Shown in pieces: positions 57,848 to 64,000 of a stretch of DNA of 64,000 nucleotides. The DNA comes from Candidatus Multivoradales bacterium (GTDB lineage: Bacteria > Acidobacteriota > Thermoanaerobaculia > Multivoradales > J023). Made by a program: the position numbers and the translations under genes. The notes under the pieces are model-generated. The model saw only the letters and a list, made by a program, of their open reading frames with translations. It ran no database searches and had not been told where the DNA came from. The stretch lies in the NCBI GenBank assembly GCA_965248925.1, contig CBDFLE010000006.1, positions 224,001-288,000 on the forward strand, in the 5' to 3' direction. Position 1 is the first letter of the stretch, and every line of letters begins with the position of its first letter.

Positions 57848-59517
57848 ATGGCAGAAGAACGTGACGTTCTGGAGATCGACGTACTCTTCGTCGGCGCTGG
57901 CCCAGCCAGCCTGGCGGGCGCCTACCAGCTGGCGAAGCTGATCGAAGAGCACAATGAGAAGGGCGAAGGCGAGTCCATCGAGATCGAGATCGGAGTGCTG
58001 GAAAAGGGCCAGGTGATCGGCGCTCACGCCCTTTCCGGCGCCGTAGTCGACACCTTAGCCTTCGCAGAACTTCTACCCGATTGCTGGCAAGAGGCGCCGT
58101 TCGAGGGAGTGGTCGAGAAGGAGTCCTTCCTCTACCTGAGCGAAAAGCGGCCCTCTCGCTGCCGGTGCCACCGCCGCTCGACAACCGCGGCAAGCGGGTG
58201 GCATCGCTGGGTAAGCTGATGAAGTGGCTGGCGGAAAAGGTCGAAGATGCCGGAGTAGATATCTTCTGCGAATTTCCCGCCACCCAAGCGCTGATCGAAG
58301 ACGGCAAAGTCATCGGCGTGCGCACCGGCGACAAGGGCCTCGATCACCAGGGCAACAAGAAGAGCAACTACGAGCCCGGCGTCGACATCCACGCCCAGGC
58401 CGTGGTCTTGGGCGAGGGCCCGCGCGGCACCCTGGCCAAGCAGCTCGAAGCCCACTTTCCGCTCACCGAAGGCAAGAATCCACAGGTCTACGCCATCGGC
58501 CTGAAAGAGATCTGGCAGCTGCCCGAGCAGCGCCTGGCCCCAGGCGAAGTGATCCACACCATGGGCTGGCCGCTCGACAATGAGACCTTCGGCGGCGCCT
58601 TCATCTACGGCATGCAGGACAATCAGGTGATCATCGGCCTGGTGGTGGGGCTCGACTACACCCACCCGATGCTCGACCCGCACACCGAGTTCCAGCGTTT
58701 CAAGACCCATCCCAAATTCGCCGAGCTGCTGCGCGGCGGCAAGATGGCCTTCTACGGCGCCAAGGCGCTGCCCGAGGGGGGGTGGTACTCGATGCCACGG
58801 CTGTGGGGAGACGGCTTCCTGCTGATCGGCGATTCCGGGGGCTTCCTCAACGGCATGAAACTCAAAGGCATCCACCTGGCGATGAAGAGTGGCATGTTGG
58901 CGGCCGAGACCATCTTCGAGGCGCTCAAAGAAGGCACTGTGACCGAACGGCGGTTGGCCCGCTTCGCAGACAAAGTCGAGGCTAGCTGGATCAAGCAGCA
59001 GATGTGGTCGACGCGCAACTTCCATCAAGGTTTCGAGCACGGTCGCATGTTGGGCTTGCTCAACACCGGCTTGGGCCTCCTCACCGGCGGCCGCGGCTTC
59101 GGCATCTTCGACCGTCTACACGCCGAACCCGGCCATCAGCGGATGCGCCACTTGCACCAAGGCTTAAGCACCCCCCAGCCCCTCGAAGTCGACGGCGAGC
59201 TGACCTTCGACAAGCTTGCCGACCTCTACAACTCCGGCACCGCCCACGACGAAGAGCAGCCCGTCCACCTGTTAGTCGCCGACCCCGAGCATTGCGTCAC
59301 CACCTGCGCCGCCGAATACGACAGCCCCTGCCAGCGCTTCTGCCCGGCCAACGTCTACGAGATCGTCGACCAGCCCGACCACCCCAGCGGCAAGCGCCTA
59401 CAGATCAACGCCAGCAACTGCGTCCACTGCAAAACCTGCGACATCATGGACCCCTACCAGATCATCACCTGGGTGCCCCCAGAAGGCGGCGGCGGGCCGA
59501 ATTACTCGAAGATGTAG
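57848..59517 (+). CDS. Electron transfer flavoprotein-ubiquinone oxidoreductase, split by a -1 frameshift near 58145
   Basis: N-terminal DVLFVGAGPASL, EKG..IGAH.LSGA in one frame; remainder (G.K.LPEGG.YS, KGIHLAMKSG, FCPANVYE, NCVHCKTCDI.DP, PEGGGGPNY) in another. Confidence 0.9.
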
Positions 59518-59616: not shown

Positions 59617-59814
59617 ATGGCGACCACGGAAATGCTACCGAAGGAGCGCATGCTCCAGACGATCCAAGATCTACCCGAGGATAGCTCCTATGAGGAGCTT
59701 CTGCGCGAGCTGGCGTTTGCCCAGATGATCGAACGCGGTCTAGCGGACGCTGAGGCAGGGCGAACCATCAGCCACCAGGAGATGGGCCGGCGGATTGCCT
59801 CATGGGGAAAGTAA
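59617..59814 (+). CDS. Small putative antitoxin (ParD/RelE-partner type)
   Basis: K..ML..I..LPED.S.EE...IERGLAD.EAGR.ISH.E; overlaps the start of a ParE-like ORF. Confidence 0.75.
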   Translation: MATTEMLPKERMLQTIQDLPEDSSYEELLRELAFAQMIERGLADAEAGRTISHQEMGRRIASWGK

Positions 59815-60035
59815 GGTGGACTAACGAGGCAGAACTCTGGCTGCGCGACATCCACGACTACATCGCCGCCGCCGGGGCACGCATTGGCACCCATCTCGAC
59901 CAACACACCACGCCAATCGGCGACTTCGACATCCTGATCGCGGCCCAGGCCATCGCCTGCGGCTTGATATTGGCAAGCAACAACCTGCGTGAATTCGATC
60001 GCGTCCCTGGTCTGAAGACCGCCAATTGGGTCTGA
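59802..60035 (+). pseudogene. Chimeric toxin remnant: ParE/RelE N-terminus fused to a VapC/PIN C-terminus
   Basis: MGKVRWTNEAELWLRDIHDYIAA (ParE-like), then PIGDFDILIAAQAIACGLILASNNLREFDRVPGLKTANW (VapC-like). Confidence 0.75.
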
Positions 60036-60092
60036 CTCCTGCAACACAGCGACGCATTGAATCGACAGGTTCTCGTCGATCTTGAATCTCGT
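60030..60092 (-). pseudogene. Truncated DUF5615 (PIN-like) toxin remnant
   Basis: ACG (in place of ATG) RFKIDENLSIQCVAVLQES directly downstream of the DUF433 gene, its usual partner. Confidence 0.6.
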
Positions 60093-60098
60093 CGCGAC

Positions 60099-60326
60099 CT
60101 ACGCTGACAGGGGAATGAGCCTCTCGCGGGCAAGCTCAGCAGCGTAGGCCAGCGTCGCCCGAACGGCCTCGGCGGTCACCGGCGGATACGACACCAGGAT
60201 CTCATCGATGCTCTGTCCCACGGCGAAGTTGTCCAGGATCACCGACACCATGACCCGTGTACCAGCAATACACGGCTTCCCGTGGCAAACACTTGGATCG
60301 ACTGAGATGTATTCACGCCAGTTCAT
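60099..60326 (-). CDS. DUF433-family antitoxin
   Basis: ISVDPSVCHGKPCIAGTRV.VS.ILD...G.S.DEIL..YP....V.A.L.YAA. Confidence 0.9.
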   Translation of the reverse strand: MNWREYISVDPSVCHGKPCIAGTRVMVSVILDNFAVGQSIDEILVSYPPVTAEAVRATLAYAAELARERLIPLSA

Positions 60327-60382
60327 CGGGGAACTCCTCCTTGGCATTTTCTACGGTTCTGCGGCTGCCGTCAAACCGCTCG

Positions 60383-60919
60383 GCACGGCCCCTACTTCTG
60401 GCGGCAGGGCCGGCGACCACCACTTCTTCACGTTCCGAGTCGCCAGCGAAAGTCTCAATGCCAGCAGTGGCGACAGGTCCGGCGACAGGAAGACCGCGGT
60501 GTTCGAGCCAAGGGAAGATCTAAATCTCAATGCCAGCAGTGGCGACAGGTCCGGCGACCCCAAGGCCTTCTCGCCATGCTCTCGACCCACCGAAAGTCTC
60601 AATGCCAGCAGTGGCGACAGGTCCGGCGACTCTGGGATCTGTATCGCTAGCTTGACTACAAGCACGTCTCAATGCCAGCAGTGGCGACAGGTCCGGCGAC
60701 AGTAACTGTAGCGCCGAATCGATCTGTGATTCACTTCGTCTCAATGCCAGCAGTGGCGACAGGTCCGGCGACTGTTTCAAACAACTTGCGAGCATTCCGT
60801 TACGGCGGCGGTCTCAATGCCAGCAGTGGCGACAGGTCCGGCGACTTCCGTACTGCTGATCGCCGACCATGGCGGGACTACAAGGTCTCAATGCCAGCAG
60901 TGGCGACAGGTCCGGCGAC
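60383..60919 (-). CRISPR. CRISPR array: 7 repeats of 35 bp plus 1 degenerate trailer repeat, 7 spacers of 34-39 bp
   Basis: Repeats start at 60452, 60524 (1 mismatch), 60596, 60666, 60738, 60811 and 60885; degenerate copy at 60383..60417. Minus-strand consensus GTCGCCGGACCTGTCGCCACTGCTGGCATTGAGAC. Confidence 0.97.
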
Positions 60920-61225
60920 ATCACCCAGTGGAAACCACGAGAAACAAGCGACTTATGACCCCCAATTCGACGGGTGATCGCAAACCACTGGCGATTACCC
61001 CGTTCTGACCCGATTCTGCTCCGAACCAAGCCTCGCAAACTATTGAATCCACAGCGCTTACCTCCTTCCTGCACATGATCATGTGCATCCTATCCGGCTA
61101 AGTCCTTTGTTCTCTGTCATCTGCGCTCCATTTACGCCTCCTTGTTGGCAATTTCTCCAACCACCCGTCGAAACGAGGGGATCCGCTACCTTCTCTCATC
61201 ACCCTCCGCCGATCCTCAGAGCACC
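60920..61225 (-). promoter_or_regulatory. CRISPR leader
   Basis: Lower-GC non-coding stretch between cas2 and the intact end of the array; the degenerate repeat is at the opposite end. Confidence 0.75.
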
Positions 61226-61519
61226 CTAGCGCACCCTCGCCAGCTCTTCGTCCGGTGGCTCGATATCACCAAAACCGACACTCTTCGCCGCGCAGCGAGA
61301 GCACACCCGGTACATCCGCACCGAGCCGTTCTCCTTGATTCGTAGAACCTTCTTCAGCCGATCCCTCAGCTTGGTCACATCAGCCTCCCGCAAGCGGCAT
61401 TCAAACACCGAGTACTGCACCCGCTCGCCCCAACCCTCGAGCACGTCCGCCACCCTACACCGCACTCGGTCCGAACGGATGTCATAGGTCACCAGCCACA
61501 AGTGAGCTGTCGCTGCCAT
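61226..61519 (-). CDS. cas2: CRISPR-associated endoribonuclease Cas2
   Basis: LVTYDI..DR.R..VA..LE.WG.RVQYSVFEC, SVR.Y..C..C. Confidence 0.95.
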   Translation of the reverse strand: MAATAHLWLVTYDIRSDRVRCRVADVLEGWGERVQYSVFECRLREADVTKLRDRLKKVLRIKENGSVRMYRVCSRCAAKSVGFGDIEPPDEELARVR

Positions 61520-64000
61520 CACGCCGGCCTGACCAGCGGCCGATAGCTATCGAGACGGCCGAGGGCAATCTCACGCAGCGCGACCGCTTGCTCGAAAAGA
61601 AAGCCACGATACGAGACCGCCTCCTCGCTGCCCCGCGGGGTGAAGGTATCCAGCAATCGACGCTCGAAGGCCGTGAGATAACGCTTACGCAGATCGCGCG
61701 ACATCCACACGGCGCCACCAGGCTGTAGCTCGAAGTCTTCCTGCCTGGCCTCGCGGCGGCGCAGCAAGGCCAGCGCCAGGCCGTCGACCAACCAGCGGAA
61801 CTCCTCCTGGATATCCGACGCCAGCGAGGGATAGCGGTCACTCCGCTGGTGATAGATGCCGAGATGCGGATTCAGCCCGGCGCTGACCAGGGCGGTTGCG
61901 GCATGCTGAAATAGCAGGTGATAGCCGAAGGAAAGCAGACTGTTGACCGGATCGGTAGGCGGGCGGCGGCGCCGACCTGAAAACTCGAAGCCAGCTGGCA
62001 AGACCTCGGCAAAGCCGGCGAAATACAAGCGTGCCGCGCGTCCCTCCAAGCCGCGCAGGGTGCCGGTGTCGTCAGCCTCCAGCGCGCTCCGTGCCAGACT
62101 GCGGATGGGCCCGGTCACCCCGCGGCCAAGGCCCAGCCGGGCAAGCTGGCTAGCCTGGTTGCGCAGCTTGCCGGCGACAATCACCCGCGCCACGGCCAGG
62201 GCGCGGCGATCATCGGCGAGCAGCACAGCCTGCGCCTGCCAGATCCGCCAATCAGCCGCCGGTGCTGCCACGCCGGCGCGGATCCGGCCGCGAGCATCGC
62301 ACATATAGGTCGGTACGCCACCGATGGCCAGGCGCTCGACGGCGGTCAGAGTGGCCCGGCCGTGACCGAGAATCGTCAGATGCAGAATACCGGCCAGGGG
62401 CAGCCGCTCCCTGGGGCGCGACGGATGCTCGAGTACCAGGGTTTCCTTCTCCACCCGCATCGATGTTTCATGATCACCGAGATAGAGCGGACGCTTGGCC
62501 GGGAAGGCTTCGCGAGCCGGTCCCAGATCGATGTCCTCTAGCGGCGGCGGGCCGCCCTCGGCGCCGCTGCTCGGCCGGCCGAGGCGGCGCAAACGCTCGA
62601 AGGGTACCGCCGCCAGCCATGACATGGCCGGGGGAGGCACCTCTTCCTGTCGGCGCCCGCCATCGTGCTTCGCCTCGTCGATCACCAGCGAGCGACAGAA
62701 CAGATAGCCGAGATAGCCGAAGCCGTCGGCCATTGAGCGCACTGAGGTCTTGCCCTCGTGCAAGGCCAGGCCCAACTCGCCGAGGGCGCGCCGCGCGACT
62801 TGGTGGGCGCGCTCGGCGGCGGCCAGATCCTTGGTCAGCACTACGAAGTCGTCGGCAAAACGGACCAGACGAAAGCCCTCGCCGAGGATCGCTTCGTCAA
62901 AGCGATCCAGAAAGAGGTTGGCGAGCAGCGGTGAGATCGGCGCCCCCTGCGGCAGACCCCGACTACGGCCGATCCGCCGGCCGTCGAAGTAGACCGGCAC
63001 GGTAATCCAATGGCGAATCACCCGCACCAGCGGCTCGAAGGGGAAGAGCGCATCGAGCACCGCGAAGAGGCGATCCCATTCGACAGTGTCAAAGAACGCT
63101 TCGATATCGGCATCGAGCACATAGCGGTAGCCATCCTCCCAAGCTCGCTGAATGGCGCGCGCCGCGCCCTGCCGGGAGAAACCCCTGCGGTAGGCGAACG
63201 ACTCGTCCTCGAGCATCGAATCGATGGCCGGCAACAGCGCCTGGGCGGCGGCGCGCTGGAGCACCCGATCGGCCGCCGTCGGCACCGCCAGCGGCCGCCA
63301 GCCGCCAGACGGCTTGGGAATCGCGCAGCCGGCGAGAGGTTGCGCCCGGTAGCAGCCGTCGAGCAGCGACCCGGCCAGACTTGCGAGAGCTGGCGGCCCG
63401 AGGTCGGCGAGGGACTGTGGGGATTGGTGGTCAACACCCGCGGCCGACGATTGGGTGGCAACGTGTTCGAGTGCCGTGGCCAGCGCGGCCGGCCTGGCGA
63501 CTTCTTGCAAGTAAGTCCGTGCCGGCCGCCACGGCCCCTCACCGTCCGGGCTGCCGGCGAGGCGGAAGCGACCGAAGCCGTAGCGCACGCTCTGACCCAC
63601 ATGGAGATGCTGCAAGAGGGCCAGGAGAGCGCACCAGTCGGGGGTCAAGCCGGCCAGTTCGAGGGTGCCCACCAGCCCTCCCTTGAGCTGGCCTCGGGGC
63701 CGGCCCGGCTTGCCCCCCGGCCGGCCACGGGTGGGCACATCGAGCCACAGCAGAGCCGCCGGGTCGGCGCGGACGGCCGCTGGCATCGCCGGCACCGCCC
63801 CCGGCGACGGCCGCCCCGCCCGCAGGTCGGCAAAGCGCCGCCAGCAGCGGGCGAGGAATGCACCGGCAGGAAAGTAGGTGCTGTCGAAGTGGCCCTTGGG
63901 GCGCTGCCGCGCGCCCCGCGGACGCGGCCGACGGAGCTCCAGGGGAGAGAGGAACTGCAAGGTGGCCACCCCACGCTCGGCGAGTGCCCGCGCGGTGGCC
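61519..64000 (-). CDS. cas1: Cas6 - reverse transcriptase - Cas1 fusion (5' end beyond the window)
   Basis: Frame open to the window end. Cas6-like FLSPL...GGLVG...HVGQSVRYGFGRF; RT AAGVD, IPK..G..RPL.VP...DR..Q, SFAYR.G, DADIEAFFD, GLPQG..ISP.LANL.L, RFADDF; Cas1 LRGLEG, RRPP.DP.N..LSFGY, G..H, LASD..EEFR. Confidence 0.93.
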   Translation of the reverse strand, partial: ATARALAERGVATLQFLSPLELRRPRPRGARQRPKGHFDSTYFPAGAFLARCWRRFADLRAGRPSPGAVPAMPAAVRADPAALLWLDVPTRGRPGGKPGRPRGQLKGGLVGTLELAGLTPDWCALLALLQHLHVGQSVRYGFGRFRLAGSPDGEGPWRPARTYLQEVARPAALATALEHVATQSSAAGVDHQSPQSLADLGPPALASLAGSLLDGCYRAQPLAGCAIPKPSGGWRPLAVPTAADRVLQRAAAQALLPAIDSMLEDESFAYRRGFSRQGAARAIQRAWEDGYRYVLDADIEAFFDTVEWDRLFAVLDALFPFEPLVRVIRHWITVPVYFDGRRIGRSRGLPQGAPISPLLANLFLDRFDEAILGEGFRLVRFADDFVVLTKDLAAAERAHQVARRALGELGLALHEGKTSVRSMADGFGYLGYLFCRSLVIDEAKHDGGRRQEEVPPPAMSWLAAVPFERLRRLGRPSSGAEGGPPPLEDIDLGPAREAFPAKRPLYLGDHETSMRVEKETLVLEHPSRPRERLPLAGILHLTILGHGRATLTAVERLAIGGVPTYMCDARGRIRAGVAAPAADWRIWQAQAVLLADDRRALAVARVIVAGKLRNQASQLARLGLGRGVTGPIRSLARSALEADDTGTLRGLEGRAARLYFAGFAEVLPAGFEFSGRRRRPPTDPVNSLLSFGYHLLFQHAATALVSAGLNPHLGIYHQRSDRYPSLASDIQEEFRWLVDGLALALLRRREARQEDFELQPGGAVWMSRDLRKRYLTAFERRLLDTFTPRGSEEAVSYRGFLFEQAVALREIALGRLDSYRPLVRPA

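Follow-up and report, generated by a model that had tools for sequence, protein, structure and literature searches.

Modules in which Cas6, a reverse transcriptase (RT) and Cas1 are fused into a single protein are, to our knowledge, nature's only known way of writing RNA sequence into an immune memory encoded in the genome; they also serve in transcript recording. Here, we describe a module of this kind in Candidatus Multivoradales bacterium (Acidobacteriota), encoded at the end of a stretch of 64,000 nucleotides (hereafter the window; C6:224001-288000, where C6 is one of the six contigs of the 8.0-Mb genome). It is a genuine but ordinary member of the known Cas6-RT-Cas1 family.

One characterized relative is the Thiomicrospira integrase complex (7KFT, 7KFU; Nat Commun 2021, PMC8102632), whose fusion protein has its three domains in the same order and is of comparable length (a chain of 984 residues), and which shares with the fusion studied here an FADD motif, a 35-nt repeat and a type III locus. 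All three activities of the Thiomicrospira protein have been reconstituted, and mutation of its residues D540, K574, H873, R835 or Cas6 R37 impaired activity (PMC8102632). As read from our alignments, the RT residue D540 corresponds to D514 here, the RT-helix K574 to K548, and the Cas1 residues H873 and R835 to H848 and R810, respectively. By contrast, the two proteins are only ~24% identical in structural alignment, the protein described here has no arginine at the place of Cas6 R37, and the two systems differ in host and G+C content; moreover, the module is here duplicated and serves three arrays.

[quoted passage not shown] We compared it through its Cas6 domain (6DD5), the full-length MMB-1 protein being absent from the aligned and tree sequences. 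Its effector belongs to type III-B (Cmr), whereas the one found here is III-D-like. Vibrio vulnificus, likened here by its published description, combines an RT-Cas1 adaptation module with III-D effectors, as in our locus, and acquisition of RNA-derived spacers has been reported for it (NAR 2019, PMC6821258). More generally, the Cas6-RT-Cas1 fusions of RT-CRISPR clade 8 or branch 1 are described as linked to type III effectors, as is also the case here.

The Cas6-RT-Cas1 fusion and its relatives

An earlier note, made from the letters of the window alone, had proposed a Cas6-RT-Cas1 triple fusion with cas2, leader and array. All these parts turned out to be real. They are the following, in window positions:

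61519..64000, continuing to window-equivalent 64392, minus strand: Cas6-RT-Cas1 fusion gene (ORF lists, Pfam, NCBIfam, PDB, AlphaFold)
63538..64000, minus strand: Cas6 domain (residues 132-285 of about 1-285, the N-terminal 131 residues lying past the window; 6dd5 profile match, PF10040)
62668..63537, minus strand: RT domain (residues 286-575; RVT_1, TIGR04416, 6ar1)
62494..62667, minus strand: RT-Cas1 linker (residues 576-633; conserved SWLAxVPF, disorder at 608-631)
61522..62493, minus strand: Cas1 integrase domain (residues 634-957; stop codon at 61519-61521; PF01867, TIGR00287, Foldseek)
61226..61522, minus strand: cas2, 98 aa (PF09827, E 1.5e-20; TIGR01573, 60 bits against a 24.5-bit cut-off)
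60920..61225, minus strand: leader, 306 nt, between cas2 and the first repeat (from the sequence)
60384..60919, minus strand: CRISPR array A, with seven intact 35-nt repeats, one degenerate leader-distal repeat and seven spacers of 33-39 nt (from the sequence)

The open reading frame (ORF) is open from 61519 to the end of the window and reaches its ATG start at window-equivalent 64392 (C6:288392). It thus encodes 957 amino acids without internal stops, of which the window holds codons 132-957 and the stop codon, with 392 nt of the gene lying beyond its end. Cas6, RT and Cas1 follow one another in this single polypeptide (Pfam matches at residues 145-275, 358-563 and 636-910). As a single sequence, the protein matches the Thiomicrospira Cas6-RT-Cas1 structure 7kft with E 2.6e-91, and positions 9-951 of a profile built from 72 full-length homologs, to which all conservation counts below refer, align with it end to end (E 5.7e-215). 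An AlphaFold2 model based on this family alignment has a mean predicted local distance difference test score (pLDDT) of 88.5, with values below 50 only at residues 1-3, 399-404 and 608-631. Its best fold matches in the PDB are 7kfu_C, from the Cas6-RT-Cas1/Cas2 complex (E 1.6e-48), and the Cas6-RT lobe of 7kft_C (template modelling score, TM, of 0.63 on the target); these are followed by structures of Cas1 and of group II RTs.

By homology, the N-terminus is a Cas6 domain. The search for a Cas6/RAMP (repeat-associated mysterious protein) match there was positive: besides the end-to-end alignment with 7kft, family profile positions 7-277 match the Marinomonas MMB-1 Cas6 domain 6dd5 with E 1.4e-30. 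The CRISPR_Cas6 family (PF10040) is recognized at residues 145-275 in a six-frame search of the genome (29.3 bits, above the cut-off of 25), and 59 of 96 homologs have a precomputed PF10040 match; the Cas6 C-terminal family PF01881 has no match anywhere in the genome. The G-rich loop, already pointed out in the earlier note, is GQSVRYGFGRF (residues 266-276, at 63565-63597), in which G266 and G274 are invariant (72/72) and G272 nearly so (70/72). H36 is kept in 71 of the 72 family members. Residues 1-300 taken alone retrieved 284 cluster representatives among 1.84 billion at E<=0.001 (130 at E<=1e-10); 71 of the best 150 matches have at least 850 aa and, among the rows listed, the match usually starts near the N-terminus of the subject.

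The RT core is, as had been supposed, of the group II intron type. It is matched by RVT_1 (Pfam, residues 358-563, E 6.2e-35), by the GsI-IIC RT structure 6ar1 (E 1.4e-44) and by the group II RT/maturase family TIGR04416 (NCBIfam, E 3e-66), in the last case with 223.9 bits, under the full-length cut-off of 300 bits, which is to be expected when an RT lacks the maturase tail. The catalytic aspartates D429 (motif 3) and D514 are present in all 72 sequences and D515 in 71, and the RT-helix lysine K548 in 67. The sequence FADD instead of YADD, which had been singled out, is indeed found at residues 512-515 (62848-62859), but we reject it as an oddity: the first residue of motif 5 is F in 22 and Y in 50 of the 72 relatives, and the paper on the solved Thiomicrospira protein itself names its 'FADD motif', so that FADD is ordinary in this family.

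The long Pro/Gly-rich linker described between RT and Cas1 fared similarly. The composition holds (11 P and 7 G among the 70 residues 567-636), but the segment is not a long low-complexity stretch, since it includes a conserved SWLAxVPF motif with predicted helices and an invariant tryptophan (W592, 72/72), and only 24 residues (608-631) are predicted to be disordered (pLDDT <50). A flexible RT-Cas1 linker is also described at the same place in the Thiomicrospira relative (PMC8102632).

The Cas1 domain is recognized by two families (PF01867 at residues 636-910, E 4.4e-66; TIGR00287, NCBIfam, 199.8 bits, above the 71.7-bit cut-off), and in the model it superimposes on solved Cas1 chains with TM values of 0.83-0.91 (Foldseek). 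The catalytic E, H and D/E residues expected from the window correspond to E783, H848, D860 and E863, each of them invariant (72/72). Likewise, the proposed translational coupling to cas2 is borne out by an overlap of 4 nt (GTGA) between the GTG start of cas2 and the TGA stop of the fusion gene, with an ATG immediately after.

Searching 5.8 billion proteins, we found 96 matches, most of them 940-990 aa long and 42-50% identical. The description of the protein as a divergent, GC-rich member of the family is correct for its high G+C content, but its divergence is only moderate, with 50-51% identity to the nearest full-length relative and 86% identity to one fragment of 570 aa. Close relatives are mostly found on short metagenome contigs. 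Only one of the 40 genomes of relatives has an intact full-length homolog (G006, from the same family, 51% identical), the RT domain of which is identical to that of P0003, a protein from an 'Acidobacteria bacterium' metagenome-assembled genome (MAG); in four others (G011, G012, G009 and G020) only N-terminal parts were matched. With one intact and four partial homologs among 40 genomes, the distribution of the gene is patchy, as expected for a mobile defence module. In two genomes of the same family, G006 (L087) and G009 (L090), CRISPR arrays flank the module or its remnant on both sides, and their repeats end in TTGAGAC.

To place the RT among the RT-Cas1 clades, we inferred a quick maximum-likelihood tree (IQ-TREE) of 57 RT domains, with rows chosen by hand from the 96 homologs and 63 locus ORFs, plus three from the genome itself and one from G006. 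Some of the reference sequences came from loci found by searching genome contigs with the family alignment; the matches listed in that search were relatives with <=35% identity and many group II intron RTs, those with 42-51% identity not being among them. All 27 Cas6-RT-Cas1 rows, together with four N-terminally extended, truncated ones, form a single clade of 31 rows (SH-like approximate likelihood ratio test, SH-aLRT, 94), which branches beside RT-Cas1 of Chlorobi and alphaproteobacteria and apart from the RTs of group II introns. Within this clade, the query belongs to a subclade of 13 rows (SH-aLRT 96) whose members are named from Acidobacteria where they are named at all; a neighbouring subclade contains gammaproteobacterial fusions, including one Hydrogenovibrio protein. 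This placement fits clade 8 of Toro et al. 2017/2018, equivalent to branch 1 of Silas et al. 2017, a name that we infer because the tree contains no labelled clade-8 reference, nor MMB-1 or Porphyromonas (clade 11). Acidobacteria go without mention in the main texts of three RT-CRISPR papers searched for them, the supplementary tables of which may list such members. With the present locus, the Cas6-RT-Cas1 family gains an intact acidobacterial-type member of high G+C content whose locus is complete on a 5.2-Mb contig, with effector, accessory genes and three arrays; knowledge of the family itself is unchanged.

Effector operon, arrays and the tandem copy

Annotation beyond the 64 kb of the window revealed Cas10, Cas7-Csx10, a III-D Csm2 and three Csm3/Cas7 proteins. 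The earlier note had expected effectors outside the window and possibly of an unusual subtype; they are outside, beginning 50 nt upstream of the fusion gene and sharing its strand, but they look type III-D-like, which is not unusual in kind. From the fusion gene outwards, they are:

C6:288441-289094 (L004:441-1094), minus strand: protein of 217 aa without family match, its gene lying between the fusion gene and the last RAMP gene
upstream of the 217-aa gene, same strand as the fusion: three Csm3/Cas7-like RAMP proteins of 296, 339 and 368 aa (PADLOC)
upstream of the Csm3/Cas7 genes, same strand as the fusion: III-D small subunit, 194 aa (PADLOC Csm2 CAS-III-D, E 6e-10)
upstream of the Csm2 gene, same strand as the fusion: Cas7-Csx10 fusion, 701 aa (three PADLOC Cas5_IIId models at residues 307-689, E 4.3e-26 to 2.7e-24)
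farthest upstream of the effector genes listed here, same strand as the fusion: Cas10, 622 aa (PADLOC, E 3.3e-37; Pfam Cas10 palm2, 31 bits against a cut-off of 27)

We word the assignment as 'III-D-like' because the NCBIfam Csx10 model scores 84.2 bits, below its cut-off of 177.3. The Cas10 protein has GGDD at residue 357 and only a weak match in the PDB (8s9t_C, E 0.004), and family searches of its 622 residues gave no HD-domain match. Such a layout is to be expected, since RT-linked CRISPR systems are reported to belong mainly to the Csm (III-A/D) class, and an HD domain is reported for only 3% of III-D Cas10 proteins. The 217-aa protein has no family match in Pfam, NCBIfam or PADLOC, and we can only guess that it might be a subunit specific to III-D, for example Csx19.

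On the other side of the fusion gene, the leader and array announced in the earlier note follow cas2 directly. Read in the transcribed sense, the repeat has ATTGAGAC at its end; type III crRNAs (CRISPR RNAs) carry an 8-nt tag of this kind. The repeat RNA folds into a weak hairpin that is not better than those of shuffled sequences (z 0.52), and a promoter scan of 60200-61600 found none in the leader, its single promoter-like site lying at the leader-distal end of the array (60374-60346). An 18-nt perfect palindrome, TGCACATGATCATGTGCA (61070-61087), occurs in the leader at a distance of about 150 nt from the first repeat, on its upstream side, and may be a protein-binding site.

The repeat of array A also builds two further arrays, which lie beside a second copy of the module. 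Leader, cas2 and fusion gene are found again at C6:306526-310028, 21.6 kb away, with ~99.8% identity; from leader to gene start, there are seven differences, between C6:284920 and C6:288399, and both gene copies are intact. The region of this second copy (C6:305993-312275, loci L004 and L005), outside the window, has array B (8 repeat copies) downstream and array C (21 copies) upstream. Array C has its own leader, ~90% identical to that of array A with the palindrome unchanged, and the last ~100 nt of a third cas2. This third adaptation module is truncated: its cas2 is cut off by the first copy of an insertion element whose transposase has 797 aa and matches Transposase_29 (Pfam, E 2.5e-76), and which is present as follows:

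C6:312276-325091 (L005:4276-17091): three copies of a 2.54-kb insertion element with Transposase_29, 99.8-99.9% identical, one of them inverted

The module has thus been recently duplicated in tandem, and its two nearly identical copies, with the three arrays, supply a single effector operon. The three arrays hold 33 spacers, all unique, of about 33-40 nt and with a mean G+C content of 50%, against 58-75% for the locus. The intact copies and the unique spacers are signs of use.

Two spacers of array C match genes of the host itself. One of them (C6:311139-311175) matches two paralogous genes for secreted proteins at 34 of 35 aligned letters (C6:82685-82719 and C6:2525918-2525952), and the other (C6:310635-310670) matches a small ORF at 30 of 33 letters (C5:91946-91978). 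In both cases, the crRNA would be in the likely mRNA sense and so should not pair with the mRNA, as would be the case if spacers had been taken from host nucleic acid and the self-targeting orientation had been lost. Owing to its tandem copies and host-derived spacers, the locus would be reasonably suited to finding out, in a natural system, what such modules take up in the wild.

Proposed mechanism and alternative explanations

At the level of sequence, the domain order, the intact active-site residues of RT and Cas1, the coupling to cas2 and the adjoining leader, array and effector are established. Taking the explanation as a whole, including the steps borrowed from relatives, we consider it very probable that the fusion provides both adaptation and crRNA maturation for a type III (III-D-like) CRISPR-Cas locus. 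By analogy with Thiomicrospira and Marinomonas, four fusion protomers and a Cas2 dimer would form the integrase, in which a Cas1-Cas2 core carries Cas6-RT lobes. The RT would allow RNA protospacers, besides DNA ones, to be converted and ligated into the leader-proximal repeat; it is from these relatives that we infer RNA spacer capture by the module. If the Cas6 domain works as in its relatives, it would cut the array transcript inside each repeat, leaving the 8-nt AUUGAGAC tag, and the AUUGAGAC-tagged crRNAs would go to the type III effector encoded just upstream.

Several observations weigh against this explanation. Spacers of arrays A and C gave no match among 50,697 phage records (distant mode, E 0.1), and the two host-gene spacers fit host transcripts or host DNA as their source equally. 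Within Cas1, R810 is present here and is the counterpart of Thiomicrospira R835, which matters most for RNA ligation, but the position is R in only 25 of the 72 relatives, so that its role may not be general. Regarding Cas6, PF10040 scores 24.3 bits on the whole fusion protein (Pfam), slightly below the cut-off of 25. The Thiomicrospira active-site residue R37 aligns with C45/Q46, leaving no arginine at this place, and family position 46 is an arginine in only 38 of 72 sequences. For these last two reasons, Cas6 catalysis seems likely but is not assured.

The alternative that survives best is that the module is intact but captures essentially DNA spacers in its host, with an RT that is dispensable for immunity or has some other role. 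RT-Cas1 proteins are described as integrating DNA as well as RNA, both in Marinomonas (2023 MMB-1 preprint) and in Thiomicrospira (PMC8102632), and nothing in the 33 spacers indicates an RNA source. However, the catalytic aspartates D429 and D514 and the RT-helix lysine K548 are under evident constraint, in both copies as well as in the family. We regard capture essentially from DNA as unlikely.

A second alternative concerns only the maturation step: the Cas6 domain might have a merely structural or regulatory function, without cutting RNA, another nuclease processing the crRNAs. The C45/Q46 pair at the position of the Thiomicrospira arginine would agree with this, as would the existence of a stand-alone Cas6 homolog elsewhere in the genome (C6:4132869-4133240, 66 bits). 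Nevertheless, that homolog sits in a locus with a different repeat, and searches with Pfam, NCBIfam and PADLOC and six-frame Pfam searches found no second cas6 in the fusion locus. Furthermore, H36 and the G-rich loop are present and conserved, and between sequences this distant the alignment of helix 1 may be off by 1-2 residues. A non-cutting Cas6 domain is, in our opinion, quite improbable.

Finally, that the second copy, and hence the twin-module layout, is an assembly artefact is hardly credible and we reject it: a repeated stretch of ~3.5 kb at ~99.8% identity is a classic source of misassembly, but the arrays beside the two copies carry different spacers, a shared piece of 3087 nt forms one short-read contig at about twice the word depth of its flanks, six variable positions in the short-read contigs share 100-nt bins with differences between the copies, and a contig of 17,741 nt connects the region just upstream of copy 1 with an array look-alike, which lies as far away as array B should. 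In the three runs, which probably come from the same sample as the assembly, the word depth of the 3087-nt contig was 34.7, 43.1 and 31.2, against 15.4-17.4, 20-25.3 and 13.7-20.7 for the flanks, word depth not being a copy number.

Accessory genes and neighbouring loci

The only unusual features of the system are the twin modules and the accessory genes beside them. The latter are five genes between the Cas10 operon and array B, at C6:296557-304989 (L004:8557-16989):

within C6:296557-304989, minus strand: SMODS cyclase of the type found in cyclic-oligonucleotide-based anti-phage signalling systems (CBASS), 346 aa
within C6:296557-304989, minus strand: CHAT-SAVED protein, 647 aa, with CHAT first
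within C6:296557-304989, minus strand: TPR-CHAT protease, 1157 aa
within C6:296557-304989, minus strand: membrane protein with a weak zf-HC2 anti-sigma motif, 283 aa
within C6:296557-304989, minus strand: extracytoplasmic function (ECF) sigma factor, 222 aa

In the PDB, the CHAT-SAVED protein matches only Cap4 SAVED domains (E 1.4e-9), with no solved SAVED-CHAT chain at E 0.01, and the TPR-CHAT protein matches TPR proteins only. Together, the five genes are reminiscent of the SAVED-CHAT/PCaspase/sigma cascade of Haliangium ochraceum, from which they differ in that the cyclase is retained and the domain order is different. One might go further and imagine the ~27-kb island as a working type III-D/CBASS composite, in which twin RNA-capable adaptation modules feed three arrays and an HD-less Cas10 with intact GGDD stands beside a CBASS-type cyclase, both signalling through one protease chain from CHAT-SAVED to TPR-CHAT to anti-sigma/ECF sigma factor. 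The locus would then be a natural intermediate in the co-option of CBASS by type III CRISPR, and the two mRNA-sense host-gene spacers would be footprints of host-transcript capture. We consider this extended scenario doubtful.

The genome contains other CRISPR loci. A third Cas6-RT-Cas1 gene at C6:1641792-1646840 is 43-44% identical to the fusion studied here and its Cas1 part continues in another frame (frameshift); the array beside it is made of 26 copies of another 35-nt repeat, which ends in ATTGCGAC. At C6:4118001-4133240, an RT ORF, a Cas1 ORF and the stand-alone Cas6 lie beside a 25-repeat array. A plain Cas1 is found at C5:1993786-2009701 beside three arrays (about 110, 14 and 23 repeats) with a 32-nt repeat.

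Within the window, an electron transfer flavoprotein (ETF)-ubiquinone oxidoreductase gene occupies 58081-59517, and between it and array A there are several small genes (59617-60347). One of them, at 60099-60347 on the minus strand, encodes a DUF433 protein (E 1.1e-22), and another, at 59802-60035, is possibly a truncated PIN-like ORF (E 0.024); these small genes look like toxin-antitoxin remnants.

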